This document shows, piece after piece, positions 7,590 to 54,813 of a stretch of DNA of 64,000 bases. Positions within the stretch are counted from its first letter, which is position 1. The number at the start of each line of letters is the position of its first letter. The position numbers were made by a program, and so were the translations under genes. Below the pieces are notes generated by a model. It worked only from the letters and a program-made list of their open reading frames with translations, searched no databases and was not told the origin of the DNA. This stretch comes from an uncultured Syntrophaceae bacterium. Its GTDB lineage: Bacteria > Desulfobacterota > BSN033 > UBA1163. The stretch lies in contig CAYMJV010000001.1 in assembly GCA_964390545.1 (NCBI GenBank), positions 30,282 through 94,281 of the forward strand, read 5' to 3'.

Positions 7590-8594
7590 ATGGACCTCAG
7601 TCGTTTTCCACGTCGACGTTATACCGAAGGACAAACACCTATTGAAAAACTTTCCCGCTTTTCCAAACAACTGGACGGCCCCACGATTTACATGAAAAGG
7701 GATGATCTTTTGGGACTTGCGGCAGGGGGCAACAAGACCCGCAAGCTGGAGTTTGTGGTTGCAGATGCCATCACAAAAGGCGCTGATACGCTCATCACCT
7801 GTGGAGCAGTCCAGTCCAACCACTGCCGCCTGACTCTTGCCGCAGCCGTCAAGGAGGGGCTCAAGTGCAGGCTGATTCTGGAAGAACGGGTGCCTAAGAG
7901 TTACAATCTTCAGGCCAGCGGCAACAACTTCCTGTTTCAATTGATGGGAGTGGAGAAAATCAAGGTCGTGCCGGGCGGTTCGGATATGATGAAAGAGATG
8001 CAGACTGAGGCCGATGAAGTGGCAGCTGCCGGCCGCAAAGCATATATCATCCCCGGGGGAGCTTCCAATAGCCTCGGCGCTTTGGGATATGTGGCCTGTG
8101 CTGAGGAGATCTTGAATCAGATCTTTGAAAAGGGCCTGAGGATCCACCGCGTGGTCTGTGCCAGCGGCAGTGCAGGGACCCATGCCGGCCTCGTTACGGG
8201 CTTTTGCGGTACCAACAGCAATATCCCGGTGGTCGGAATCAACGTCAGCCGCACCAAGGAAGCTCAGGAAGAACTCGTCTACGGGTTGGTCCAGAAAACC
8301 GCGGAGCATGTCGGTGTTGAGGGAAAGATCCCCAGGGAAGCGGTGCTCTGTTTCGGGGATTACGTTGGAGCGGGGTACTCCCTCCCCACCCCCGGCATGA
8401 CCGAGGCGGTTAAACTGCTGGCACGTACCGAAGCGATCCTGCTGGATCCGGTCTATACCGGCAAGACCATGGCTGGAATGATCGACCTTGTCCGCAAGGG
8501 GTATTTCAAAAAGGACGAAAACATCCTTTTCGTCCACACCGGCGGATCACCGGCCCTTTATGCTTATAGGGAAACCTTTCTGAGCGAAGTTTAA
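7590..8594 (+). CDS. PLP-dependent D-cysteine desulfhydrase / ACC deaminase-family enzyme
   Basis: GGNKTRKLE lysine motif and overall DcyD/ACC-deaminase fold signature. RBS AGGAGG lies 5 nt before the ATG. Confidence 0.75.
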   Translation: MDLSRFPRRRYTEGQTPIEKLSRFSKQLDGPTIYMKRDDLLGLAAGGNKTRKLEFVVADAITKGADTLITCGAVQSNHCRLTLAAAVKEGLKCRLILEERVPKSYNLQASGNNFLFQLMGVEKIKVVPGGSDMMKEMQTEADEVAAAGRKAYIIPGGASNSLGALGYVACAEEILNQIFEKGLRIHRVVCASGSAGTHAGLVTGFCGTNSNIPVVGINVSRTKEAQEELVYGLVQKTAEHVGVEGKIPREAVLCFGDYVGAGYSLPTPGMTEAVKLLARTEAILLDPVYTGKTMAGMIDLVRKGYFKKDENILFVHTGGSPALYAYRETFLSEV

Positions 8595-9137
8595 ACCCAA
8601 CCTCTTCCTAGACCAAAGGGGTCATTGGTAACGATGCACTTCGATTATTCAGATTCTCAGAGAATAGGCAGGAAATGCCTCCCCACCAAACCTCCATCGT
8701 GACGAGGGTTCTTTGGACCCAATCAACTTATCATGGCTGTGGGAGGCAGGGAACACACTACAAAAAGGATTCAATGACCCAGGTGAAACTCAAGTCCTCC
8801 TGCCTCTTCCTCCTGAATGGCTTAACCCATTCATATGCTATTTATAACATACTCGCAGAGTAGGAGGTTAAGTTCGCAACCCCCTTTTTCGAGGACTCCT
8901 TCCTGTAATTTTTGGTTTACATTTTTGTCCCACCATACAATCTTTCAAGTGATAATCCTTGATTCTTGTTGACCTTTTCATTCCAAAGTGGTAGCCTCTT
9001 ATCAAATCATACGACCTTAATCAACCTTCCAATTCAACCTCAACCTTTTGGTATTAGTTATGAAATGGAGTTTTCAGAAGCGGCCACTATGAAACCTTCA
9101 ATACCCCTTGGTGCATTTGGTTAAAAGGAGGATCCTT

Positions 9138-9467
9138 ATGGTAGATAAACTTCATAAGTTGAGGTCGATGCTACTAATAATCATCATTCCCATTTTATTC
9201 TCATGTGCCTCTGCTGAATACTACGACAACCGGGGACTTGATTACTATTTTAAAGGCCAATACGATCAGGCGATCTCTGATTACACCAAGGCTCTTGAGA
9301 TAAATCCGAGGTTTGCTGAGGCCTACAACAATCGGGGGATTGCCTATTTTGAGAAGAGAGAATACGACAAGTCTTCGGAGGATGTGAAAAAGGCACTAGA
9401 TTTAGGTTACCAAGTTCACCCTAAGGTTTTTGAAGAACTTCGTAAGGCTTCAGGAAGGCAAAATTGA
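9138..9467 (+). CDS. Small TPR-repeat lipoprotein
   Basis: Lipobox LFSC after the signal peptide. Two to three TPR units (AISDYTKALEINPRFAEAYNNRGIAYF). RBS AGGAGG before the ATG at 9138. Confidence 0.6.
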   Translation: MVDKLHKLRSMLLIIIIPILFSCASAEYYDNRGLDYYFKGQYDQAISDYTKALEINPRFAEAYNNRGIAYFEKREYDKSSEDVKKALDLGYQVHPKVFEELRKASGRQN

Positions 9468-9666
9468 GGGAAAAGGCATTAACGCTTTCAACCCGCAATC
9501 CTCAAGTTATGATATGGTGTAAATCTGACTCTTTGTAGGTGCTATCAACAACGACGTGAAAGTTCGGAGACATAAAAAAAGTAGGTTAAAGGTTGAGGTT
9601 AAGGCTTAGGCTGAGTCAAGGCTTTTGCTCTTGCCTCCAACCTTCGACCTCTAACCTCTGGCGGGA

Positions 9667-11724: not shown

Positions 11725-13752
11725 TCAAATGTTATTTTCTCGCGATGTTTGGGATAGGCCATCTGAATACATCCTGGGATTTCCCATCCCCTGGGCGATG
11801 ATCACTTTCTCAATGAAGATGGAATCTCCCCCAGGGGTAGTAGCCCAGCTCTCTTTCTCGTCGAAGAAGACTTCCACTTCTTCAGCCCCCGCCTCCTTTG
11901 CTTTTTGGAGAGTAATTTCGCGAAGACGCTTCTTCCCTTCCTCGGTTGCCTCTCCAAGATCATTGTAGAAGGCCATCCTTGAGGAGGGGTAGAGGCGAAA
12001 TCCTCTCTCGAAGGGTTTGATGAGGAGTTCTTCTTTGATGACGATGGCACTCGTAATGGCGCCTACCGCATTGGCGACCCCGGCATAAAATGGAATCACT
12101 GCCTGAGTGCCCAGCTTCTCAGCCACAGAAGGAAGAAAGGCATGGGCAGGCGCTCCAATCCCGATGATCTTATCTCTGAGGTTCACTTTAAACTGAATGC
12201 CCTCGATCGATGCTCCCCGGCGAAAAGATTGGTCTAAGAAAAGGCGGGAGAACTCGCATTCATCCAATCCCTTTTTTGAGTCGATCGATTCGGACAGAAT
12301 GAGTTCAAGGATCTGAAGGCCCATGGTCCGATCCATGGTCTCTTCCAATTTCTGAATGAGGGTGGAAAGTTCAACCCTCGATCGATCACAGAGAATACGG
12401 ATTCCCCGCTCCGCAGCCTCTCTGTCCCAGGCCTGGAAAATCCCTGTTACGTGGAGGATGTCAGTTGGAGTAAGTCCACTCTTCTGAATCAGGTTACGCC
12501 TTTCTAAATAGGAGACTCTCCTCTGCACTTCGGCCGGGGACCGACCTGTTGGTCTAAATAGTTGAAACAGGGAGAGGGGTTTATCCGTCACCTCTGAAAG
12601 GATCTCCTCTGTGAGGTGATCCAGTCCATTTTCTGTCCTTCTTCCTATCCGAATCCAAAACTCCGCATCATTTCTCCAAGAAGGAAGGCTTCGGTCCTCA
12701 TAAATCCGTATCAATTCTTCATGAATGTTTGCATGACAGTACCCTAAATAAGAAAGAGGAATGACCCTCTTCGGTCCGACCCGCAGATCCCCTCCGTCAT
12801 CAATCGTGATCTGGCTGTCCCCTCCAAGGGCAATGGTCCGCATATCGATCGCAATGACGTTTGTCTGCCAGTTCCCAACCCTTGCCCCCTTTGGATTAAG
12901 CCGAGGAAGTCCACCTCTGAGCAGGGCGATATCCGTGGTCGTCCCTCCGATATCCGTAATCACTGCATTCTGAGTTTCTCCAGATTGCTCCAGTAAGTAT
13001 TTGGCTCCAATCACACTTGCAGCAGGTCCCGATAGGATCGTCTCAATAGGTCGATCCTGGATAACAGATTCGCTCATCAGGCTTCCATCTCCCTTCACGA
13101 TCATCAGAGGTGCAGCGATGTTCTCTCTTCGAAATTCGCGTTTCACAGAATCAATCAATTGATGGATGATGGGGATGAGATGGGCATTGAGGATGGCAGT
13201 GGTGGCCCGTTTGACGGCATCCAATTGGAGGGAGATTTCGTGGCCACAGACAACCGGTTTCCCTATCTTCTCTTGAATGAGACGCTTTACACGAAGTTCA
13301 TGATCTGGATTCCGAACGCTGAAATAGCCGCAGACGGCATAAGCCTCGATTTCGTCTTTTGTCTTGTGCAAGACTGCTTTCACCCGATCAAGATCCAACG
13401 GTTCCTTCTCTTCACCCTGCACGGTATGTCCCCCAGGGATTAAAACAACTTCTTCTTTCAGCCCGGACGGGCATTCATCAGGCCCATAGCCGATGAGGAT
13501 ACCACAGACTCTGCGCCTCACCCCCTCTACGATGGAGTTGGTAGCTAAAGTGGTAGATAGGGAAACCAACGAAATCTTGGGGAAGTAGATTCTGTCCAAA
13601 CGTTTAAGAACATCATCGATACCCTTAGAGAGATCATCTTTGGTGGTAGGTGCCTTTGCAAAGGAGAGAACTTTTCTCTCACTGAGATCAATGAGAACTG
13701 CATCAGTATTGGTTCCTCCAACATCGATGCCCAGCCCGATATTTGAACTCAT
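11725..13752 (-). CDS. Hydantoinase/oxoprolinase-family (HyuA-like, ASKHA fold) protein
   Basis: N-terminus LGIDVGGTNTDAVLID is the hydantoinase_A N-terminal motif, and the 675 aa length fits A-type subunits. No B-subunit gene is adjacent. Confidence 0.75.
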   Translation of the reverse strand: MSSNIGLGIDVGGTNTDAVLIDLSERKVLSFAKAPTTKDDLSKGIDDVLKRLDRIYFPKISLVSLSTTLATNSIVEGVRRRVCGILIGYGPDECPSGLKEEVVLIPGGHTVQGEEKEPLDLDRVKAVLHKTKDEIEAYAVCGYFSVRNPDHELRVKRLIQEKIGKPVVCGHEISLQLDAVKRATTAILNAHLIPIIHQLIDSVKREFRRENIAAPLMIVKGDGSLMSESVIQDRPIETILSGPAASVIGAKYLLEQSGETQNAVITDIGGTTTDIALLRGGLPRLNPKGARVGNWQTNVIAIDMRTIALGGDSQITIDDGGDLRVGPKRVIPLSYLGYCHANIHEELIRIYEDRSLPSWRNDAEFWIRIGRRTENGLDHLTEEILSEVTDKPLSLFQLFRPTGRSPAEVQRRVSYLERRNLIQKSGLTPTDILHVTGIFQAWDREAAERGIRILCDRSRVELSTLIQKLEETMDRTMGLQILELILSESIDSKKGLDECEFSRLFLDQSFRRGASIEGIQFKVNLRDKIIGIGAPAHAFLPSVAEKLGTQAVIPFYAGVANAVGAITSAIVIKEELLIKPFERGFRLYPSSRMAFYNDLGEATEEGKKRLREITLQKAKEAGAEEVEVFFDEKESWATTPGGDSIFIEKVIIAQGMGNPRMYSDGLSQTSRENNI

Positions 13753-13862
13753 TTCGAAGACTCCAGCAAAAAAGATAGCGACATAACGAAATTACATCTC
13801 TATAGGCAACTCTTTTCTCTATCGATGGGATAGGATATCTAGTCCAACAGGGAAGATTCTAT

Positions 13863-14501
13863 CTACCCCCGACCAATCAATTCCCGGGCCTTTTCCACAG
13901 CACTTGCCGCCTCTGGGGCATAAGCATCTGCCCCGACATCCTTAGCAAATTTCTCAGTCACAGGTGCTCCTCCCACCATCACTTTCACCCTGCCTCGAAC
14001 CCCTGCCTCAACGAGAGATTCAATGACTTCCTTCATCTTCGGCATCGTTGTCGTCAGAAGGGAGGAGAGGCCCAAGATGTTCGGTCGATTCATTTTCACT
14101 GCCTCAACAAATCTCTCTGAAGGAACATCAATTCCCAGATCGATTACCTGAAATCCCGCTCCTTCCATCAACATTCCCACTAAATTCTTGCCAATATCAT
14201 GAAGATCCCCTTTGACGGCACCCAGAACAATCTTCCCGGCAAGCTTTACCCCTGTCTCAATCAATTTCGGACGCAATATATCCATTCCGGCCTGCATCGC
14301 CCTAGCCGAGATCAGGACCTCCGGCATGAAGAATTCATCTCTGCGAAATTTCTCTCCGACCACATCCATTCCGGCAACAAGTCCATTGCTCAGAATCTTT
14401 GACGGGGGAACATTCGCATTCAGTGCTTCCTGGACCAATTTGGGCATTTCCTGGTAATTTCCTTTCTGAAGCTCTTCAGAGATCTTTTGCAGCAGTTCCA
14501 T
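13863..14501 (-). CDS. Cobalamin-binding corrinoid protein (MtmC/MttC/MtgC-like)
   Basis: B12-binding DxHxxG motif (GDLHDIGKN) with the C-terminal Rossmann-like B12 domain. A preceding helical cap domain is present. RBS AAAGGAGAGG lies before the ATG at 14501. Confidence 0.8.
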   Translation of the reverse strand: MELLQKISEELQKGNYQEMPKLVQEALNANVPPSKILSNGLVAGMDVVGEKFRRDEFFMPEVLISARAMQAGMDILRPKLIETGVKLAGKIVLGAVKGDLHDIGKNLVGMLMEGAGFQVIDLGIDVPSERFVEAVKMNRPNILGLSSLLTTTMPKMKEVIESLVEAGVRGRVKVMVGGAPVTEKFAKDVGADAYAPEAASAVEKARELIGRG

Positions 14502-14607: not shown

Positions 14608-16044
14608 CTACGGTCTTATTTCCGGAAACATCTTCTTCAACTGATCATTTAACTCTTTCGGTAGGCCCAACGGCTTGTGATCCCTGAGGATCGCCTTGGC
14701 GATCGCTCTGGCCTTTTCCTCCACAGAGGCTCTTCCCGATTTCTCCCAATTGACCCTTAGTTGCCGGTCGCTCAATTTAGGGGTAAAGTGTTCCCTGCGC
14801 ATCCATTGTACCGTGTGATGATCACACAGAAAATTTCCACCGGGACCCACTCTACGGTAAGCATCCAGAGCAATGGTCTCTTCCGAAACTTCAATCCCTC
14901 GGACAGCTCTCATGACCATCCCTATGATCTCGTCATCGATTACATACTGTTTATAGCTGGCAGTGCTTGCAAACTCCACCAATCCAGCCGCATCATGGAT
15001 GAAATTGGAACCCGAGAGGGCCACCAGCACATTGGTGATCGCTTTTTCATAGCCATTTTGGGTATCTACGATCTTGGAGTCAGACATTCCAGCCGTCGTA
15101 TAATTAGGCAGATTCACATACTGGGCCATGGCGGCTGCCCCTGCATTAATTAATCCCATTTCCACCGATCCGCTCACATAGCCCATCGTCTTTAAATCCG
15201 TGGAGGTGGCTGTGCAGGCATAGAGGACCGGGGTACCAGGGTTAACCAGTTGCGTGAGCACAACGCCACTTAAAGTCTCAGCATGGAGACCGGTGAGAAG
15301 GCCTGCGATCGTCACCGGTGCGGTTGCACCCGTCAGAGGCTCTGCTGGAATGGCAACGGGCATCCCAGCCCGAGCAATGTGACAGAGGATATCGCCATAG
15401 AGATCATCAATCTTAAGAGGGCTGACCACACAGGTGATGAACGAGATGAACGGCCTCTCCCTTAAGGCTTTGGGGCTTCCTGCAATGATCTCCCCCATCT
15501 TGATGATATCGAGAGTTCCTTTAAGCGTGTAGATCCCTCCCATGAGGTGTTTTGAGCAGTTCAGGATCGATGAGTGAAATCGATTGATGTCCACCTCCTG
15601 AGGCGGAAGCTCATTGGGATAAACGGGAAGAACCATAAAATGGATATTTTCCAAGGCATCACACAAGCGTGCAATATCCCGCACATCCTTCAAAAGGGTT
15701 GGACGTTTCTCATTGGTTTCGAGATCGATCACATTCAGGACCGTCCCTCCTGTTCCGAGATAGACATTCTTTCCTTCACAATAGAGGTCATGCTTCTCTT
15801 CCCTGCCACAAAGGACAACTTTCTTTGGTGCTTTATCGATTGTATCCTCGACCATTGATCTCGATAATTTAACGAGTTTCTTTGAAGTGTCGCATCCCGC
15901 CCCATGTTTCTGAAACGCTTCGAAAGCTAACTTGCTATGAACTTCCACCCCAATTTCCGAGAGAAGGGTAAGGGCAGATTCGTGAATTTTGCGAATGCCT
16001 TCATTCGTCAGAGGTCGGTATTGACCACCAGCGATCGGTTTCAT
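14608..16044 (-). CDS. MttB-superfamily methyltransferase (non-pyrrolysine; substrate:corrinoid methyltransferase), copy 1
   Basis: MttB-family blocks (YLGTGG, DLETNEKRP, LCDALENIHF). Uninterrupted ORF with no in-frame TAG. RBS AAAGGAG lies before the ATG at 16044. Confidence 0.8.
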   Translation of the reverse strand: MKPIAGGQYRPLTNEGIRKIHESALTLLSEIGVEVHSKLAFEAFQKHGAGCDTSKKLVKLSRSMVEDTIDKAPKKVVLCGREEKHDLYCEGKNVYLGTGGTVLNVIDLETNEKRPTLLKDVRDIARLCDALENIHFMVLPVYPNELPPQEVDINRFHSSILNCSKHLMGGIYTLKGTLDIIKMGEIIAGSPKALRERPFISFITCVVSPLKIDDLYGDILCHIARAGMPVAIPAEPLTGATAPVTIAGLLTGLHAETLSGVVLTQLVNPGTPVLYACTATSTDLKTMGYVSGSVEMGLINAGAAAMAQYVNLPNYTTAGMSDSKIVDTQNGYEKAITNVLVALSGSNFIHDAAGLVEFASTASYKQYVIDDEIIGMVMRAVRGIEVSEETIALDAYRRVGPGGNFLCDHHTVQWMRREHFTPKLSDRQLRVNWEKSGRASVEEKARAIAKAILRDHKPLGLPKELNDQLKKMFPEIRP

Positions 16045-16108
16045 TTTTTCTCCTTTCTTTTTGTGCACCCCTAATGCCGAAGAGAATCCTCTTGATGGGT
16101 CTCTTCTC

Positions 16109-17545
16109 TTAGAGCCGTATATCAAACCGCTTCCGGATCTCCTGGTCGGTTTCTACATCAAGTCCTTTGGGCAAGTGGGTTTTAAGTATTTCCCTCGCCT
16201 TCCTTCGGGCCCTTTCGCGACCGTCAAGAGATCCTGAATTTTCCCAGGTCTCCCTAGTCTGACGGTCTCCGAGCGTTTGTCGAAAATATTCCTGTCTCAT
16301 AAATTTGATAGTATGCATGGAAGAAAGGAAGTTCCCAGAAGGTCCCACTTCTCGAAGGGCCTCCAATCCCAAGGTCTCGCTGTCAATCTGGATCCCTTTG
16401 AGGAGACGGAGGGCCATCCCGATGATCTCATCGTCAATCACAAACTGCTCGTAAGCAACCGCTCTCATTGATTCCAACATACCGGCGGCATGGTGAATGT
16501 AATTTGAGCCTGCCAATACACAGAGGCAGACCGAGTACGCCTTCTCATAACCTGCCTGGATATCAGGGAGCTTCGATTCGGTAAGGCCAGCGGAATTATA
16601 ATTGGGAACTTGAATCGATTGAGCCATTTGAGAGATTGCTGCATTCATCAATCCAAACTCGATGCCTCCTCCCACATAACCCATTGTTTTTAAATCGGCC
16701 ATGGAAGGGATGGCACCATAGAGAACCGGAGAACCAGGGTTCGCCAGTTGTGTAAAAACGATTCCAGACAGTTGTTCAGCATGCACCTGAGCTAACGTCC
16801 CGGCCAATGTGACTGGAGAGGTTGAACCTGCCATAGGAGCTGAAGAGAGAGCTACCGGGATCTTATTTCTTATAATTTCTAGTAAGACTCGGGTTGTTTC
16901 TGTCGCAAAATGTAAAGGGCTGATCATCCAACTTGTGACAAAGGAGATAATCGGTCTCTTCACTAAGGCCTCTTTCCCTCCTGCGATCATCTGGGCCATT
17001 TCGATCACATCTCTGGCTGTTTGAACAGATTGGGCAGCTGCCATGACATGTTTGGTCGTATTAGAAAGGGAGGCATAAAACTGGTTGATGTCCATCACCT
17101 CTTTAGGAATGTCCTGAGGAATACAGGGTCGAAGGTAGAAATGGACGTTCTCCAATGCATCGACAAGCTTTGCAAGCTGTCCGATATCTTTTAACACTCC
17201 GGGCCTTGCCTTTCCTGTTCCCAAATCGAGGATAGTCAACGCAGCCCCCCCTGTTCCCAAATAGACCCTCTTATCTTCAAGGATCAGATCATTCTTTTCT
17301 TCTTGACCTGCCATCAAGAATTTGTGAGGAACAAGTTTCAGGCCCTCTTCAACAAGTGATGCCGGGATGCGAACGATCACTCCTTCGATCTTTGCCCCAT
17401 GTTTCTTAAAAACCTGCAGGGCTTCTTCTAACTCCACCTTGACCCCAATCTCTTCAAGAATTTTGAGAGACGTTTGATGAATTTTATTAACGTCTTGTTC
17501 GTTTAAAGGCCTAAACTGTCCTCCCACTAACGCTTTCACATTCAT
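16109..17545 (-). CDS. MttB-superfamily methyltransferase (non-pyrrolysine), copy 2 (paralogue of copy 1)
   Basis: Same blocks as copy 1 (YLGTGGAALTILDLGTGKARP; LVDALENVHF). The two copies are about 45% identical by eye. No in-frame TAG. Confidence 0.8.
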   Translation of the reverse strand: MNVKALVGGQFRPLNEQDVNKIHQTSLKILEEIGVKVELEEALQVFKKHGAKIEGVIVRIPASLVEEGLKLVPHKFLMAGQEEKNDLILEDKRVYLGTGGAALTILDLGTGKARPGVLKDIGQLAKLVDALENVHFYLRPCIPQDIPKEVMDINQFYASLSNTTKHVMAAAQSVQTARDVIEMAQMIAGGKEALVKRPIISFVTSWMISPLHFATETTRVLLEIIRNKIPVALSSAPMAGSTSPVTLAGTLAQVHAEQLSGIVFTQLANPGSPVLYGAIPSMADLKTMGYVGGGIEFGLMNAAISQMAQSIQVPNYNSAGLTESKLPDIQAGYEKAYSVCLCVLAGSNYIHHAAGMLESMRAVAYEQFVIDDEIIGMALRLLKGIQIDSETLGLEALREVGPSGNFLSSMHTIKFMRQEYFRQTLGDRQTRETWENSGSLDGRERARRKAREILKTHLPKGLDVETDQEIRKRFDIRL

Positions 17546-30591: not shown

Positions 30592-30647
30592 GTAGGGCAT
30601 GATCCCCGATCATGCCATCAGCGGTGCGTTCGGGGAACGCACCCTAC
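30592..30647. repeat. REP/BIME-like pair of inverted GTAG-headed palindromic units immediately 3' of hemY
   Basis: GTAGGGCATGATCCCCGATCATGCC and the inverted GGTGCGTTCGGGGAACGCACCCTAC. The same units occur in swapped orientation at 47769-47848. Confidence 0.7.
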
Positions 30648-46769: not shown

Positions 46770-47744
46770 TTAAAGAGGCAGGTCCACACCCATCCCCTTT
46801 GCTTTCGCCAGTTGATAAATCCGGATCGCTGTGGCCATGTCATCCAGGGCAAGGCCCAGGTTGATGCTCATGGCCCGCTCTTTAGAAGATTCACGGCCGG
46901 GCTTAAGACCCGCCACAATCTCTCCAAGGTCGGCATAAGGCTCTGGTGTCTCTTTGAAGTAGCCTTCCTGCCTGTAGTAACGCATCTGCATGAGGTCATC
47001 GGTAGCAAGTTTATTGATTTGACGGATTGCTCCCCCCTTCCAGTAGGAGTCAAAATCTACAGGAGAGGCAAAGGCTCCATCTGCAAGCCACCCCGGTTCG
47101 ATGAGGGGTTTCGGATGTTTAAGAATGGGACCGCTGGTCACCACAAGGTCTAGGCCTTGCACTGCTTCAGTCAGTCTTTTCACCGGCTCAATATCCAGGT
47201 TCAGGGCTTTGCTCATTTCCGTTGCATACTGCTCGGCTATTTCAGGGTAGAGATCGTACGCCTTCACTTTCTTAATCTTGAAGAGACAGGTTAGGGCTTC
47301 AAGATTGCTGCGGCCTTGCACTCCGCAAGCCACAATCCCGACCGTGGTACTATCAGGACGGGCGAGGTACTTGGCTGCCACGGCCGTGGCTGCACCTGTT
47401 CGCTTGGCCGTAATCCAGGTGCAGTCCATGATGGTGATGGGTATGCCTGTTTCTGGGTCGTTCAGCAAGAGGAGCCCAGTGATATAGGGAAGACCTTTTC
47501 TTTGATTGTCCGGGTAACCCGACACCCATTTCATGCCTGCTGATTGGAGGTTGGGGATATAGGCAGGCATAGCGTGGATAAAGGCGTCAGGACGGGTATG
47601 GATGCCTGGTTTGGGTGGCATCTCTGTACGGCCGGCACCCTTCTCTTTAAACATCGCTTCCAATGCATCGATGATTTCACGCATGGGAAGGGCAATCGTT
47701 TCTACATCTTTACGTGAAAGGTATAGAACGGATCCTAGTTTCAT
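46770..47744 (-). CDS. Ornithine cyclodeaminase / mu-crystallin-family protein
   Basis: NAD Rossmann motif GIVACGVQG in the OCD fold. The ORF-track 5' extension overlaps the REP pair, so the ATG at 47744 is preferred. Confidence 0.7.
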   Translation of the reverse strand: MKLGSVLYLSRKDVETIALPMREIIDALEAMFKEKGAGRTEMPPKPGIHTRPDAFIHAMPAYIPNLQSAGMKWVSGYPDNQRKGLPYITGLLLLNDPETGIPITIMDCTWITAKRTGAATAVAAKYLARPDSTTVGIVACGVQGRSNLEALTCLFKIKKVKAYDLYPEIAEQYATEMSKALNLDIEPVKRLTEAVQGLDLVVTSGPILKHPKPLIEPGWLADGAFASPVDFDSYWKGGAIRQINKLATDDLMQMRYYRQEGYFKETPEPYADLGEIVAGLKPGRESSKERAMSINLGLALDDMATAIRIYQLAKAKGMGVDLPL

Positions 47745-47768
47745 ATCTTTTTTATCCTGATCAGATAT

Positions 47769-47848
47769 GTAGGGTGCGTTCCCCGAACGCACCATCATGG
47801 TGAGCTCTTGTTAAACTATTTAAGGCGTGCTCGGGGATCACGCCCTAC
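47769..47848. repeat. REP/BIME-like pair: GTAGGGTGCGTTCCCCGAACGCACC, a ~30-nt spacer, then inverted GGCGTGCTCGGGGATCACGCCCTAC
   Basis: Reverse-complement relationship to the units at 30592-30647, verified by eye. Confidence 0.7.
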
Positions 47849-47957
47849 AGCCTTGGATTCTGCCGAAAAGGGAGGCTAAAGCTTTCCCTCCCAATGTTTA
47901 TTTTTCAATGAGTTTCTGAAACAAGTTCAGAATGACAGATGGTAAAGTTAATGTTCT

Positions 47958-48518
47958 TTATTCCAAGATCTTCTTCAGGGCCTCGTCGGTCTTTCGTCCC
48001 CTCGGCCCATCTCCAGGAAGGTAGAGCATGACTCCTTTTCCGCTCCTTAAGGGAATGACCTCTATCTTTCCCTCTGAGGCCATTTTGCTGGTAAATTCAA
48101 TCGGGTCTTTGTTGAAATGTTTCCGGAAGGCATCATTTAACCCGCTGAAGACACTGTGGATACCCCGGTAAGGTTCTTTCCTCAATTTCTTTATCCCTTC
48201 GATGATGAACTCCTCTTCAGAAAGAGAGGAGGCTTGACCCCCGCCGATCAACCGGATGATCTCTTCTGCAGAAGGCCTTTGAGGAGCATCTCCAGGAAGA
48301 AAGAGCATCACCCCTCCTTTAAAAGCCCTCGTCTCAATCTTGCCCTCCTTGGCGAGTCTGGAGGTCGCCTCCACGGGATTAGTTCCGAAATACTTTCGAA
48401 AGGCTTCGTTGAACCCGCTGTAGACGCTGTGGATCCCCCGAAAGGGGTCCTTTCTCAATTTCTTGATCGCCTGGGTAACAAATTCTTCTTCGGTCAGTCT
48501 TTTTTCTTCGTCCGCCAT
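47958..48518 (-). CDS. Hypothetical protein made of two tandem ~90-aa repeats (EEEF..KKLRK.P.RGIHSV.SG.N.AFRK.F...P.E.TS..A.EGKIE......G.GVML.LPGD)
   Basis: Internal duplication obvious in the translation. No known family. Confidence 0.5.
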   Translation of the reverse strand: MADEEKRLTEEEFVTQAIKKLRKDPFRGIHSVYSGFNEAFRKYFGTNPVEATSRLAKEGKIETRAFKGGVMLFLPGDAPQRPSAEEIIRLIGGGQASSLSEEEFIIEGIKKLRKEPYRGIHSVFSGLNDAFRKHFNKDPIEFTSKMASEGKIEVIPLRSGKGVMLYLPGDGPRGRKTDEALKKILE

Positions 48519-48673
48519 GGGGCTCCCTCCTCCCAAATCAACACTTCGACTCCCCGGCCTGAAGGCCTGGGCTTGCCCTCGGCCTGAGACTTCGGCGTGA
48601 GCTCAGTCGAACGCTCGGGTCGAAGGCTCAGGGTTGACCCTGAGCGCCGCCGAATGGGTCAACCCTTTAGGTT

Positions 48674-49885
48674 CTACGATTCCTTCGGCTTTTTTAAATC
48701 GAATCCTTCTTTTAAAAGGGAATCCTTTAACTCCTTCACATCGACCTTCTTTTCAATGGCATTGAGAATCTCTGCCCTCCCCTTTGTCTCCCCGAGAAGG
48801 ATACAGCCCACGACCTTATCTTCTTTGAAAGTGATCTTACAATAAGTACATTTCTCGAGGTCACTCCTTACGACACAATCCAGCTTCTTTTCGGCATCGA
48901 TCTCACCGGCAGCCGTGAGGTCAATCCCCACTACCTTCAAGGTATTTGAAACGACCGTTCCTTCGTAGATGGCCTTTCCCCCAGCCATATTGATCCCGGC
49001 AACCTCTCCCTGCCGTTGGGCTGCTGGCCAGATCCCGTAAACGCGACCTCGATGCTCTGCCACATCTCCAGCAGCAAAGATCCCTTCGGTCTTTGTCTTT
49101 AATTGGTCGTCAACGAGAATTCCATTCTTCATCTCTAAACCCATTTCCTTGGCCAGCTGGATGTTAGGCCTAACTCCGGCCGAGATGATCACCATCTGAC
49201 CTTCAACAACCCTACCATCTTTAAGCCGTAATCCCTCTACTTTCTCTTTTCCCAGAATTTCATCTGATTGGCCATTGAGGAAGAAGGAAAAACCCATCTC
49301 CTCCATCTTTTTTTGTAATATCTGAGCTCCCGCTTCATCCATCTGCCTAGGAAGGATTCGCGGATTATGTTCAATAACGGCGACCTTTACCTCTCGCTTC
49401 AACAAAGCCCCCCCCGTCTCCAATCCGACGAGCCCCCCTCCAATCAGGATGGCCTGCTTCACCTTGGCCGAAAACTCCTTCATCTCGAGGGCATCTTTCA
49501 TGGTCCGCAGAGTGAAGACGCCCTTTTTCTCCACCCCTTTAATGGGGGGTACAAAGGCACTGCCCCCCGTAGCCACGAGAAGCATGTCATACGGATAGGT
49601 CTTCCTCTTCTTGCTGAGAACCTCTCTCTTGTCGGACCGGATCTCTCCGATCGGCTCCTCCAAATGGATGGAGATCTCCTTGCTCTCGTAGTACTCCTTC
49701 GTATGGATGGTGATGTCTTTAAGGCTCACCTCCCCTGCCACGTACTCTGGGAATCGAACACGATAATAAAAAGGATAAGCCTCTTCCGTAAAGATGTGTA
49801 TCTCCCCTTTTGGATCGGTCTCCCTGATCTTAATGGCTGCCCTTGCCCCTGCCGCACCATTCCCGACGATAAGATATCGTTTCAC
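48674..49885 (-). CDS. FAD-dependent pyridine nucleotide-disulfide oxidoreductase (rubredoxin reductase/NADH oxidase-like)
   Basis: Two Rossmann motifs (LIVGNGAAG; ILIGGGLVGLE) and an FAD C-terminal motif GDVA. Confidence 0.75.
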   Translation of the reverse strand: MKRYLIVGNGAAGARAAIKIRETDPKGEIHIFTEEAYPFYYRVRFPEYVAGEVSLKDITIHTKEYYESKEISIHLEEPIGEIRSDKREVLSKKRKTYPYDMLLVATGGSAFVPPIKGVEKKGVFTLRTMKDALEMKEFSAKVKQAILIGGGLVGLETGGALLKREVKVAVIEHNPRILPRQMDEAGAQILQKKMEEMGFSFFLNGQSDEILGKEKVEGLRLKDGRVVEGQMVIISAGVRPNIQLAKEMGLEMKNGILVDDQLKTKTEGIFAAGDVAEHRGRVYGIWPAAQRQGEVAGINMAGGKAIYEGTVVSNTLKVVGIDLTAAGEIDAEKKLDCVVRSDLEKCTYCKITFKEDKVVGCILLGETKGRAEILNAIEKKVDVKELKDSLLKEGFDLKKPKES

Positions 49886-50162
49886 TCTTCTTCTCCCCTG
49901 TATCTAAATTTGTTGATCCACTGCTGGAACATAAATTGGCTAGAGCAGTCCCTTCACCCTATTTCGTTGATCCGTTCGGTCGGCCGAAGCCGTTCGGCTG
50001 AGCTCACGGCTGAAGGCAAGCTAGCAGTCGAGAGGTTTACCCCGTTAGAAAGCCCCGCTGCTTGCAGCGGGGATGAAGGTAATTTTGCCATGGGAGCGAG
50101 CACAGGGTTTAATGCCCCGCGTGAGCCTTCCCGTTAGAAGGCCAAAGGTCTTCTAACGGGGT

Positions 50163-51284
50163 TTACTTGATTCCATCACGGAGTTCCCGGGCGAGGAGGT
50201 CAACCGTCCCTCGCGTTCCTCCTGCCAATTTCTGCTTCCACTCTCCGTCCGTCTCAAACCGTGTTTCTCCGATCCGATCGCCCCAGGGTTTGATCGCTTC
50301 CCGGATGCCGAAGTAGTCGAAAGAATCTTTCTTTAACTCTTTTGATCGAGCCATCACATCGGGGCTCACCCGTATGAAGGCACGGAGGGCGGCTCCGGTC
50401 TTGATGCTGTATTTCCGCCCGGCCCAGGCCTTTGGGAAAATTGCCAGAATGGCCTTAAAATAGTTCAAAAAGAATCGCTTTCCATTCTGCTCGAATTCCT
50501 TGAACCGATTCGCTCCTCCCAGCTTCTCGATATTGCCAAAAAGATCCACCATCTCTTCTGCCAAGGAAGCCTGGGAGACTCGGCCCTTTCCCACACCCAA
50601 TATTTTAATCTCTCTGTGCAGAGGAGAGCTTTCCTCTTCGTTGAGAGTACGGATGATATCATGGGCTAAGGCCTGATACGAATCAGCGTAAAGCCTTCGA
50701 CCGGCTAACGAGATGAGGTGGGAGGGGTTGAGCCGCGTATGCTTGGCATTGATGGTCACAAAAAGCTCAACTGTCTGCCGAGCATCCAACGTATCGAAGA
50801 GAACGGCTGGGACGTCGATCTCCAAATCTGTTTCCATCTGAGCACTGAGGGCGAGGAGGCGATGTTGACCATCGAGACATCGAAGGATTCCCGGCTCTTC
50901 GGGAATCTGAAGCATCCCTAGGTTGGGATTCTTCCCTATCGGGGAGAAGCTAAGCTTCTTTTCCGTGATCATGATCACGGCCCCTGGTATGGCAGGTAGA
51001 TTCTGGGACTCTTTACAATCCAGATAGTACTGGACCAATTCTCGGATCTTCTTTCGAATCATCGGCCTCTGGAAGGCCGCCTCGCTCTGCCCGATCCGCT
51101 TCTCCAGCACCTCCCAGTTGATGGCAGAGGTTTTGGTCGGTTTCCTCTTTTTCGTCTCCTCCTCCGCGCCTGAATAACTTAAAACTTCAAATTGAACCAA
51201 TTTCTGAATATCCCCGGAGGTAAAAGAGGTTTGATAAAAATCGACTCCGAATTGCCTCACCTTATGGGCTGGAACGGTAATCAT
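50163..51284 (-). CDS. DGQHR-domain protein (DndB-like, ParB/Srx-fold)
   Basis: Literal DGQHR motif (ILRCLDGQHRLLAL). A size of about 370 aa matches DndB/DpdB-like proteins. No dndACDE genes are adjacent. Confidence 0.65.
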   Translation of the reverse strand: MITVPAHKVRQFGVDFYQTSFTSGDIQKLVQFEVLSYSGAEEETKKRKPTKTSAINWEVLEKRIGQSEAAFQRPMIRKKIRELVQYYLDCKESQNLPAIPGAVIMITEKKLSFSPIGKNPNLGMLQIPEEPGILRCLDGQHRLLALSAQMETDLEIDVPAVLFDTLDARQTVELFVTINAKHTRLNPSHLISLAGRRLYADSYQALAHDIIRTLNEEESSPLHREIKILGVGKGRVSQASLAEEMVDLFGNIEKLGGANRFKEFEQNGKRFFLNYFKAILAIFPKAWAGRKYSIKTGAALRAFIRVSPDVMARSKELKKDSFDYFGIREAIKPWGDRIGETRFETDGEWKQKLAGGTRGTVDLLARELRDGIK

Positions 51285-51377
51285 GAAGAACCACCTCCCT
51301 TTTTCTATCTACATCTCCAGCAATTAAGAATGGTTTCGGTGCTTTAGGAGATATGATAAATTGAGTCTATACGCTGT

Positions 51378-51400
51378 GCGCATAGCGCTAAGCGCTTAGC
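51378..51400. promoter_or_regulatory. Palindromic candidate operator (GCGCATAGCGC / GCTAAGCGCTTAGC) ~90-115 nt upstream of the DGQHR gene
   Basis: Perfect 14-nt palindrome read directly, in the 5' region of the minus-strand gene. Confidence 0.3.
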
Positions 51401-51984
51401 CTAGTAATACATAGATACCAAAATTCCCCTTCCTAAACAAGCGAATTCTATTGCTCTTTGAACCCCCTCAGTTATGGGTTCTGGGGTAGAGAATTCGACA
51501 GGAATACCTCCGAAAATCTTATCAAGCGGACGATATTATTTTTTGCTAAGGGCAACAGCTGCTACCATTTCGTGGCTGGTTAAATGGGTTTAGATCGCGA
51601 TCCGACGATCAGCGAGCAGAGGATTCCGCCCTGCCTGCCGGCAGGCAGGTATAAGATTTTCTCCGGCATCCCTGCCAAATTCTGAAAAGTTCGTGTGTGT
51701 AACTGAGGGATTACTGCCCTTTTCTGGACATGGGCACCGGCATGGATTCCCTTTCCTTTTTATTGATACTTCGACGGCACCAAACCTCGACCTTTAGGAC
51801 AGGGTCAAAGACGCCGCTCAGTATCAACCCTGAGCAAACCCCGGGTGCTTGTCCTGAGCGCAGTCGAAGGATTAGACCGGGGATAGTCGAAAGGTTGATT
51901 TTGGAATATCCCTCTGGTAAGTTAAAATAAGTGTTACCAATCCAATCTGAGGAAACCCAAATCAAACATGCAGGGAGACTTACC

Positions 51985-52389
51985 ATGAAAAAGAAGCTAC
52001 TTTTAGGATGCCTCGTCATCTTTTTGGGAATGGGAATGTTTGTTTCGCGGGTACTGTCAGCCGATGCTGCGAGAATGACCAAGGATGAACTCAAAGCCTT
52101 ATTTGGGAATCCCGATTTGATTCTATTGGATGTCCGTTCCGGGAGCGATTGGAAGGATAGCGATTTGAAAATTCAAGGGGCCATTCGAGAAGAACCCGGG
52201 CAAATCAAATCCTGGTCTAAGAAGTACTCCAAGGAGAAGATCATCGTTCTCTACTGCGCCTGACCCAATGAAGGAACGAGTGCCCGGGTGGCACAACAAC
52301 TGATCAAAATGGGATATCCCAAAGTCTATGCCCTAAAGGGTGGCTGGGTGGAATGGTCTAAAAATAATTATCCAGTGGAGAAAAAATAG
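51985..52389 (+). CDS. Periplasmic (lipoprotein-signal) single-domain rhodanese with in-frame TGA at 52261-52263 in the active-site loop (YCA-TGA-PNEGTS): candidate selenoprotein, or a pseudogene
   Basis: RBS GGGAG before the ATG. Rhodanese motifs occur before the TGA (LLDVRSGSDW; IIVLYC). The frame is perfectly conserved after it (SARVAQQLIKMGYPKVYALKGGWVEW) to TAG 52387. A GUGCC-CGGGU-GGCAC hairpin lies 16 nt downstream. Confidence 0.55.
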
Positions 52390-52400
52390 AGTCGAAGCGT

Positions 52401-53228
52401 ATGTGGTTTCGATCTCCAATTGTCCTCAATGCGGGAACTCCGTTTCACATCCCGACAGAACAGTCCATCGATATTGCGTTAACCCTTGCGATGGCGGACC
52501 TGAAGGCAAAGTTCATCGATGCTGAAAGGGGGGCGGTCCGTTACAAGTCTATTCGTGGCTCTGAGGAGTTTGAACGTTATAAGGATCTGACAAGGGGATT
52601 ACGGTCCTTCGATCTTCGCTCTGTCAAAGACCGTGGACCGAGGCTCGCCTTCTGGACCAATATTTATAACACGGCCGTGATTCACGGTGTGATTGAACTG
52701 GGGCTGGAACGCTCTGTTAAGGAGTATCCTGGATTTTTCGATCGGATCACTTATGAGATAGGGGGATCTCGTTTTTCTCTTAATGAAATGGAGCATGGTC
52801 TCCTCCGTGGCAACCGGAGACACCCCTATCGGGTCCTGAAACCTTTCCGTGAAAGAGACCCGCGCCTCGAATTCGCCATTGTCCCCCTGGATCCAAGAAT
52901 CCATTTCGCTCTGGTCTGTGGGGCCAGGTCGTGTCCGCCCATCGGTTTTTATGAAGCTGAACAGATCGATTTCCAGCTTGGGCTGGCGGCCATGAGCTTT
53001 ATCAATAGCCCTCAGGTCAAGATCCTCCCCGAAGAGAAGACTGTTTTCATTTCGATGATTTTTAAATGGTATAAGATTGATTTTGGAGGGAGTGACAGAG
53101 CACTGCTCGACACTCTTTTGAACTACCTTGATGAGGGGAAGGATAAGGCCTTCCTTGAGGAGAATAGAAATCAGATCAGAATCCGGTATCAGCCTTATGA
53201 CTGGAATTTGAATCAATCGGAGAGATGA
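52401..53228 (+). CDS. DUF547-family protein
   Basis: LAFWTNIYNTAVIHG block typical of DUF547. Confidence 0.55.
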   Translation: MWFRSPIVLNAGTPFHIPTEQSIDIALTLAMADLKAKFIDAERGAVRYKSIRGSEEFERYKDLTRGLRSFDLRSVKDRGPRLAFWTNIYNTAVIHGVIELGLERSVKEYPGFFDRITYEIGGSRFSLNEMEHGLLRGNRRHPYRVLKPFRERDPRLEFAIVPLDPRIHFALVCGARSCPPIGFYEAEQIDFQLGLAAMSFINSPQVKILPEEKTVFISMIFKWYKIDFGGSDRALLDTLLNYLDEGKDKAFLEENRNQIRIRYQPYDWNLNQSER

Positions 53229-54525: not shown

Positions 54526-54813
54526 TTACAATGCAATGCGATTGAGGAGCGTGATCCCCGCATGATAGCAACAGCATGCACTATCGAAACTATTATCGAA
54601 GACCCTCTTCTTCCCATCCTGAAAGAGGATTCGAACGTAACAAAGCCCGCCGGGCAAATCAGAAGACCAGGTCTCGATCACAACCCCACCTCCCCAAGAT
54701 TTGAACTTTTTATGATAGACTTTATCCCCTACCCTAAGATAGGTGTGTCTTTCAATGTTAGACTTTATTTCCGAAAGACCCTGCGTCTTTCTTTGAGGAA
54801 GAAGTTCTCTCAA
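54526..54813 (-). CDS. Small hypothetical protein (possibly DUF3553-like)
   Basis: ORF only. The GDKVYHKKFKSWGGGVVIE motif resembles small conserved proteins. Confidence 0.25.
   Translation of the reverse strand: MRELLPQRKTQGLSEIKSNIERHTYLRVGDKVYHKKFKSWGGGVVIETWSSDLPGGLCYVRILFQDGKKRVFDNSFDSACCCYHAGITLLNRIAL

Follow-up and report, generated by a model that had tools for sequence, protein, structure and literature searches.

The DNA examined here, which we call the window, is a stretch of 64,000 nt from an uncultured Syntrophaceae bacterium (GenBank assembly GCA_964390545.1, contig CAYMJV010000001.1, positions 30,282 to 94,281 of the forward strand), and our analysis concerns a gene within it for a 373-residue DGQHR-domain protein (window positions 50163-51284, minus strand). 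We consider it probable that this protein is a stand-alone core switch of the ParB/sulfiredoxin (ParB/Srx) fold, which binds a nucleoside triphosphate (NTP) and nucleic acid and is paired, in this clade, with the product of a nearby gene, dup192 (47958-48518, minus strand, 186 aa; start at 48536 in the list of open reading frames, ORFs). Slow evolution and a fixed position across many relatives make the DGQHR gene look like a core gene and not like an orphan of a defence system; NTP binding, DNA binding, the partnership with dup192 and the core role itself are what we infer for it. A preliminary description of the region 47760-51985 had seen a repeat-partitioned accessory segment, with three genes on the minus strand (dup192, the FAD/NAD(P)H oxidoreductase gene PyrRedox, and DGQHR) set apart by repeat-rich spacers. 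The gene calls and the spacer lengths (about 160-215, 137-155, 277, and 700 nt) bear out this arrangement, so that the observation is confirmed with small coordinate corrections, and the interpretation built on it is, overall, partly supported.

The protein is a bona fide and intact member of the DGQHR-domain family, in the DGQHR/DndB branch of the ParB/Srx fold, and is neither DndB nor DpdB proper. In hidden Markov model (HMM) searches it reaches 121.5 bits on TIGR03187 (cut-off 58.85; its orthologs score 108-126 bits) and 60.8 bits on the Pfam DndB model PF14072 (cut-off 29.1), which upholds the assignment made earlier from the letters alone. The scores on the equivalog models are of a different order, with 58.8 bits vs the 300 needed for DpdB (NF041060), 25.2 vs 328 for DndB (TIGR03233), and 42.9 vs 450 for TIGR04172. 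The domain had been introduced as the hallmark of DndB and DpdB-like proteins; the family domain is indeed present, but the protein falls far under both of these equivalog cut-offs. The PADLOC models agree with the NCBIfam picture (the PADLOC DpdB match is at 1e-18), and DpdB is the best-scoring named subfamily. Public databases label the protein and its relatives 'DGQHR domain-containing protein' (TIGR03187 only). The clade is narrow: 94 matches at E <= 1e-30 were found among 1.84 billion 50%-identity representatives, most of them fragments, leaving about eight full-length 50%-identity clusters.

The motifs that define the DGQHR domain are a QR pair, the DGQHR pentapeptide, and FxxxN (PMC4619093), and the corresponding residues Q72-R73, D138-G-Q-H-R142, and F175/I178/N179 are invariant in an alignment of 16 sequences that extends down to 27% identity. 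The AlphaFold2 (AF2) model, built on 29 sequences with a predicted local distance difference test (pLDDT) score of 80, has a beta-rich N-terminal half that bears the DGQHR helix, recognizable as a ParB/Srx-type domain, and an all-helical C-terminal half. PDB sequence searches with the protein and with the family profile gave no meaningful homolog. PDB fold matches of the model are ParB-N of pNOB8, PadC, and sulfiredoxin, all of them weak (E >= 0.04). In BFVD, a set of predicted viral structures, the model best resembles DndB-like, GmrS-N, and ParB/Srx proteins (E = 1e-9 to 1e-3), the top neighbours being viral DndB-like and GmrS proteins (E = 1e-9 to 1e-5). These model and fold results are in line with published work, which assigns DGQHR domains to the ParB/Srx fold (PMC4619093) and reports that a DndB-like ParB-fold protein binds ATP and GTP (PMC12704722). 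From the invariant signature residues and that ATP/GTP-binding precedent we infer that the protein may be an NTP switch of the ParB-CTPase fold.

The genomic setting of the gene is conserved as well. The window's neighbouring proteins were mapped onto 51 loci from one-genome-per-species contigs and onto several metagenome contigs. The window protein is 99% identical to its counterpart in the metagenome-assembled genome (MAG) 'Deltaproteobacteria bacterium RBG_16_49_23', and about 30 species-level genomes of Syntrophaceae-like Thermodesulfobacteriota share one syntenic block around the gene. The first half of this block reads Trm112-LpxL-orf95, followed by a variable slot (FabH, DUF547, rhodanese, or HNH) and then DGQHR; the second half continues from DGQHR through an optional PyrRedox, dup192, an optional OCD, and Macro to MFS/DUF1178 and a PDZ nuclease. 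Median identities to the window protein within the clade are 84% for DGQHR, 83% for Trm112, 82% for dup192, 77% for Macro, 75% for PyrRedox, 62% for LpxL, and 55% for rhodanese. In the Binatia-type loci described below, the medians are 86% for DGQHR, 71% for MnmA, 64% for Der, and 61% for IscS, so that in both lineages DGQHR ranks above its neighbours in median identity. A second sample was taken from the side of dup192: 80 metagenome loci were fetched, 48 of which carry enough upstream sequence to be informative, and DGQHR lies upstream of dup192 in 45 of the 48. Only PyrRedox, OCD, FabH, DUF547, and rhodanese vary between relatives, and the DGQHR-dup192 pair stays. Within the same block we noticed orf95 (54526-54813, minus strand), which in most clade genomes precedes the DGQHR slot and encodes a conserved 95-aa protein; its sole match is a sub-threshold one to a PcrA/UvrD Tudor domain (17 bits).

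This conservation bears directly on the explanation favoured in the preliminary description, namely that the protein is an orphan or novel component of defence or DNA modification, with partners that are unlinked or unknown, at an accessory site prone to recombination. DndB, DpdB, and GmrS are the systems for which the domain is best known (PMC4619093), the viral DndB-like and GmrS-like proteins head the BFVD matches, small mobile repeats surround the gene, and foreign DNA has entered the adjacent slots of some relatives, be it an insertion sequence (IS) element, a methylase gene, or a small HNH gene. In locus L017 an IS256/Mutator-family transposase gene (8357-9646) occupies the slot upstream of DGQHR, and the slot between dup192 and Macro in L021 holds an N6/N4 DNA methylase together with a 200-aa ORF (12197-13342 and 13390-13992), possibly a restriction-modification system. 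However, a fixed synteny across about 30 species and 45 of 48 metagenome loci, the top median identity among neighbours in two lineages, equivalog scores far under the cut-offs for both DndB and DpdB, and a start/stop overlap inside the rnc-era operon of Binatia are hard to reconcile with an accessory gene. The usual partners are also missing, as had been supposed: the PADLOC models of dnd/dpd partner genes gave no match among 64 window ORFs and none among 79 ORFs in the ±10-kb flanks of four relatives. The neighbours that do surround the gene are Trm112, LpxL, FabH, rhodanese, PyrRedox, and Macro, and neither patchy presence nor co-located defence genes, the operational marks of a defence island, were found for DGQHR. 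The preliminary description had named a conserved syntenic housekeeping context across the clade as grounds for giving up the accessory reading, and such a context is what the relatives have; that reading therefore fails. What survives of the recombination-prone spot is that the spacers vary and the adjacent slots accept foreign DNA, but the DGQHR gene itself is stable. With the conserved context and the rnc-era placement in Binatia both disfavouring it, we regard a defence or modification role as improbable.

The small HNH protein (about 105-111 aa) deserves mention in its own right, as it turns up repeatedly in the variable slot that precedes the DGQHR position (L003 4578-6029, L004 7225-7560, and L115 2600-3598). 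It is accompanied in L003 and L115 by two conserved ORFs of about 111 aa, and it persists in L115 although DGQHR is missing there.

Orthologs at 56-62% identity are found in MAGs labelled Binatia or Polyangiaceae. Most Binatia-type loci have the gene order iscS-mnmA-rnc-DGQHR-era-der, in which rnc scores 252.6 bits on TIGR02191 and era 334 bits on NF000908, and in 13 of 16 loci the TGA of the upstream gene overlaps the ATG of DGQHR (ATGA), which suggests translational coupling. Four more distant full-length relatives are likewise stand-alone: one is located between thyX and a Ser/Thr kinase gene (P0279), another adjoins a HEAT-repeat protein (P0314), a third, in Terriglobia (L052), is found among TPR, PilZ, and sigma-54 regulator genes, and the fourth, in Myxococcales (L053), between acyl-CoA dehydrogenase and Aat. 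The contexts of the relatives in other lineages are unrelated chromosomal genes of a non-defence kind.

The iscS-mnmA-rnc-DGQHR-era-der order and the ATGA overlap could also be taken to mean that the protein acts on RNA and not on DNA, as a factor of RNA processing or ribosome biogenesis with RNase III, Era, and Der, or of tRNA thiolation with IscS and MnmA. The conservation of DGQHR is at a level akin to that of translation-related genes, and a sulfur-carrier rhodanese is often its divergent neighbour in the window's clade, both of which would fit such a role. However, the association with rnc and era is seen in one lineage only, the contexts in others being unrelated, functionally unrelated genes such as recO also ride in rnc-era operons, and we know of no ParB/Srx-fold DGQHR protein that acts on RNA. 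We give this explanation little chance as it stands.

The second member of the conserved pair, the clade-specific dup192, is located downstream of DGQHR in the clade loci. Its product consists of two roughly 90-aa repeats, and a repeat is still visible in the DNA (105 nt, 75% identity, 273-nt spacing). No family match was obtained in Pfam, NCBIfam, or PADLOC. The AF2 model (pLDDT 84) shows an H-S-H-H-S-S topology twice, and its fold matches, although weak, are all tandem winged-helix proteins (STK19, RPC34, ESCRT-II, ScpB, and SelB), so that dup192 is predicted to form tandem winged-helix domains. A histone-fold doublet was considered as well, the dup192 profile having matched histone H2B, with E = 1e-4 for an artificial tandem H2B-H2B chain (8grq_D) and about 0.3 for single chains; the register of these matches is consistent and aligns 'LFLPGD' to 'LLLPGE'. 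It was rejected, as the AF2 model and the fold search point to tandem winged-helix domains and to no histone fold, and the similarity to H2B is probably coincidental. An HMM search found no dup192 homolog near the DGQHR orthologs of Binatia, Terriglobia, or Myxococcales.

The mechanism that we propose draws on three relatives that have been characterised, namely DndB, a repressor that depends on ATP, DpdB, the ATPase helper of a DNA transglycosylase, and ParB, an NTP-gated DNA clamp. By analogy, the DGQHR protein would be a switch that binds and probably hydrolyses an NTP and whose nucleic-acid target is most likely DNA and less likely RNA, and it would serve a core cellular role and not defence. 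The clade, which is small and evolves very slowly, inherits it at a fixed chromosomal position, with no dnd, dpd, or restriction partners nearby. A conserved predicted sigma-70-type promoter of its own, followed by a hairpin or palindrome leader, would drive the gene, and dup192, which follows in the same orientation, would probably be carried on one transcript with it; the dup192 product would be the likeliest physical partner of the DGQHR protein or its DNA-binding adaptor. A bolder version, which we put forward tentatively and hold to be distinctly less likely than the switch reading itself, is that this is the first protein of the DGQHR/ParB fold with a core cellular task instead of one in DNA modification or defence: an NTP-gated factor that binds nucleic acid, wired to rnc and era in Binatia, and paired with a previously undescribed tandem winged-helix protein in Syntrophaceae-like bacteria. 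Its role may be in the organisation of the chromosome or nucleoid, or in the maturation of RNA or ribosomes.

The predicted sigma-70-type promoter is at 51412-51440 (minus strand), with a -35 element TTGTTT at 51440-51435, a 17-nt spacer, and an extended -10 element TGGTATCTA (TGG extension) whose hexamer TATCTA is at 51417-51412. The block CGCTTGTTTAGG...AATTTTGGTATCTAT upstream of the gene is kept in most clade loci, and it is the consensus match and this conservation only that suggest a promoter function. Directly downstream of the predicted -10 hexamer are the leader palindromes (51370-51400), which comprise GCTAAGCGCTTAGC at 51387-51400 and then an imperfect one, CGCTATGCGCACAGCG. The former is the palindrome that had rightly been placed upstream of the DGQHR start; it is unique in the window, and wherever it occurs in other loci it precedes the DGQHR ATG by 40-90 nt. 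Two unrelated and mutually exclusive forms of the leader exist, both locus-specific and both able to fold (z = -3.2 to -3.9). The first form has the palindromes GCTAAGCGCTTAGC and CGCTATGCGCATAGCG (the window, L003, L015, L017, L018, and L021), and the second has a long hairpin of the GGTGGAG...CTCCACC type (L001, L004, L009-L011, L016, L020, L030, and L035). The leader palindrome is hence neither a dispersed repetitive extragenic palindromic (REP) element, being locus-specific, nor a universal operator, since an alternative leader exists, and both assignments were rejected.

A narrower regulatory role can be read from this leader. DndB represses its own operon by binding palindromes in its own promoter (PMC4507180), and the DGQHR protein could similarly be a DndB-type repressor that binds GCTAAGCGCTTAGC and CGCTATGCGCATAGCG at its own transcription start and autoregulates DGQHR-(PyrRedox)-dup192 and perhaps the divergent rhodanese gene. 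In favour of this are, besides the DndB precedent, the uniqueness of the palindrome in the window, its restriction elsewhere to positions upstream of DGQHR (seven other loci), and its location directly downstream of the conserved -10 hexamer. However, many relatives, one of them with a 97%-identical protein, have an unrelated leader that is free of the palindrome, and the Binatia orthologs overlap the rnc stop and thus lack a promoter region of their own. Two leader forms with near-identical proteins and leaderless Binatia orthologs make a DndB-style operator possible and not compelling. The DndB motif TACG-N10-CGTA has no occurrence in the 64-kb window, and an extreme conservation of the whole protein would be unusual for a local regulator. 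In sum, a local repressor seems unlikely to us, if somewhat less so than the defence and RNA explanations.

PyrRedox (48674-49885, minus strand) encodes a 403-aa FAD/NAD(P)H oxidoreductase with Pyr_redox_2 and Rubredoxin_C domains, as matched in Pfam and NCBIfam. Its best NCBIfam matches are the N-terminal half of NirB and ferredoxin/rubredoxin reductases, all under the equivalog cut-offs. Of the 45 metagenome loci with DGQHR upstream of dup192, 21 contain it and 24 do not; the closest relative, L007, in which DGQHR is 99% identical, is without it and joins DGQHR to dup192 through a 111-nt spacer, and L001 has it. PyrRedox thus rides between DGQHR and dup192 as an optional, variable passenger. 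Inverted repeats of 18 nt bracket it in the window (48596-48613 and 49991-50008, 94% complementary).

On the other side, the rhodanese gene at 51985-52389 (plus strand) is divergent from DGQHR and probably encodes a selenoprotein with a UGA at 52261-52263. The ORF halts at ...LYCA-TGA and the same frame runs on to a TAG at 52387-52389, and with selenocysteine written as Cys the product scores 181.7 bits on NF041203 'rhodanese-related (seleno)protein' (cut-off 115). The small hairpin 3' of the UGA has no significant fold (z = 0.06).

With such neighbours, a sulfiredoxin-like redox or sulfur enzyme, working with the adjacent FAD oxidoreductase and the rhodanese selenoprotein, comes to mind. The ParB/Srx fold, the presence of sulfiredoxin among the PDB matches, and several peroxiredoxin-family genes in the window would go along with it. 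Yet DGQHR has Gln where the GCHR motif of Srx has its catalytic Cys (PMC4619093), which makes sulfiredoxin chemistry unlikely and led us to reject sulfiredoxin-like catalysis; moreover, about half of the loci lack PyrRedox, many lack rhodanese, and neither gene is found near the orthologs in other lineages. Of the explanations weighed here this is the one we believe least, and its probability is very low.

A core NTP switch paired with dup192 remains the reading we prefer for this clade, which exists only as MAGs, and several observations weigh against it. The weakness of the PDB fold matches was noted above. Three of the 48 informative loci (L102, L113, and L115) keep the context with DGQHR missing, which means that the gene is not indispensable everywhere. 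The absence of dup192 beside the orthologs outside the clade means that the partnership cannot be general. Membership of an rnc-era operon, in which E. coli recO is also found, is no proof of related function. An unrelated hairpin replaces the leader palindrome in L001, where the protein is 97% identical, which argues against a simple autoregulatory operator. The partner search spans 64 kb of this genome, and unlinked dnd/dpd genes are possible.

The repeats on which the accessory segment had been founded are real in most cases, and we take them to be ordinary intergenic elements of the REP and MITE (miniature inverted-repeat transposable element) type that do not delimit a mobile segment; the repeat content of the spacers varies between close relatives. 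The REP inverted pair reported from 47769 onward is found at 47769-47848, with GTAGGGTGCGTTCCCCGAACGCACC at 47769-47793 (plus strand) and its inverted partner at 47824-47848 (minus strand). A second inverted pair of the same element (GTAGGGYGYGNTCCCCGARCRCRCC) is at 30592-30647, giving 4 matches in the window vs 0 expected, and the pair at 47769-47848 forms a strong hairpin (z = -6.0). The MITE fragment proposed for 47850-47957 could not be confirmed; the better reading of that stretch is a terminator-like hairpin after dup192 (47866-47892, minus strand; GGGAGG...CCUCCC and then UUUU), a call that comes from its consensus-type appearance only. Next to the REP pair, the OCD/mu-crystallin gene (46770-47798, minus strand) has a longest ORF that begins within the REP element; its start is probably the ATG at 47744, given that the relatives are 324 aa long and that homology begins at 47745.

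A composite palindromic element, GCTCAGG/CCTGAGC/TGAGCTCA, occupies 48579-48660 (fold z = -2.8), and repeat comparison gives related GCTCAGG-type copies at 49980-50008 and 51806-51870. The claim of related palindromic elements with an inverted copy is therefore sound, 48626-48649 and 51812-51835 being 88% complementary over 24 nt, in addition to the 18-nt pair around PyrRedox. The GCTCAGG-type copies that flank PyrRedox are absent from the corresponding spacers of L001.

Abutting the DGQHR stop is a MITE-like element of about 125 nt (50035-50163) with a strong RNA fold (z = -5.7). Its terminal inverted repeats, ACCCCGTTAGAA, are 12 nt long, TTTAC/GTAAA repeats flank it, and it contains one hairpin at 50053-50072 and another at 50130-50160. 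These hairpins correspond to the two perfect hairpins described earlier at the DGQHR stop. Both exist as parts of this one element, but the first is at 50053-50072 and not at 50040-50059, and the second pairs at 13 of 14 positions and so is not perfect. The orientation of the element relative to the DGQHR gene is opposite in L001 and L002, the element is absent in L007 and L006, and L015 has a further copy at a different site. Finally, the spacer between DGQHR and rhodanese contains an insert of about 300 nt relative to L001 (51470-51790), with a CCTGCC...GGCAGG palindrome and 33-nt inverted arms at 51490-51522 and 51651-51683.

A search of Rfam with 47600-52500 returned nothing credible, only MEG8 and HgcC at E = 0.25-0.38. 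Farther away in the window, Rfam PYLIS_3 (mttB pyrrolysine insertion) matches at 14988-15087 and 16486-16585 (both minus strand; 56.7 and 43.4 bits). They fall within two adjacent MttB-family ORFs (14611-16125 and 16112-17545), which may be homologs without pyrrolysine, as both appear uninterrupted. A glycine-betaine-binding OpuAC protein is also encoded in the window.

The DGQHR domain is usually taken as a marker of Dnd phosphorothioation, Dpd 7-deazaguanine modification, or GmrSD-type defence, and automated finders and human readers alike tend for this reason to flag any lone copy as an orphan defence gene. What surprised us is that a domain of this 'defence type' behaves as a housekeeping gene: the compact clade studied here acts like a core gene in its fixed position and in a conservation above that of MnmA, Der, and LpxL, and it is linked to rnc and era in one phylum. 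Should its role be a cellular one, the ParB/Srx NTPase fold would cover a wider range of functions, and DGQHR, alone or with its tandem winged-helix partner, would be a concrete candidate for experimental testing. The case also calls for caution, in that dense REP/MITE spacers do not make the genes between them accessory.

Compared with known systems, the protein shares with DndB the PF14072 and DGQHR domains with the QR, DGQHR, and FxxxN motifs, a similar length (about 360-375 aa), and, in part of the window's clade, a palindrome in its own promoter region. It differs from DndB in its equivalog score (25 bits vs the 328-bit cut-off), in having no dndACDE or dndFGH nearby (in the window and in the flanks of four relatives), in the absence of the TACG-N10-CGTA site from the window, and in its fixed, housekeeping-type context, whereas dnd islands are mobile. 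With DpdB it has the ParB-like NTPase fold in common; dpdA (TGT-like), dpdC, and dpdD-K are not found nearby, again in the window and the four relatives' flanks. The N-terminal domain of GmrS/DUF262 and the ParB-CTPase and sulfiredoxin families resemble it in fold and in the position of the nucleotide-binding signature (DGQQR, GERRxR, or GCHR), and the DGQHR orthologs have weak Pfam matches to GmrSD_N. Unlike GmrS/DUF262 proteins, however, the window protein has no fused HNH/DUF1524 nuclease, and unlike ParB it is without the ParB-type helix-turn-helix and dimerisation domain, with no parA or parS evident; the helical C-terminal domain has no recognizable relative. A limited literature search found no description of a conserved stand-alone core-genome DGQHR clade or of its placement between rnc and era. 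The domain and its motifs are already known; what differs in the present clade is the genomic logic, which is stand-alone, core, and coupled to rnc and era.

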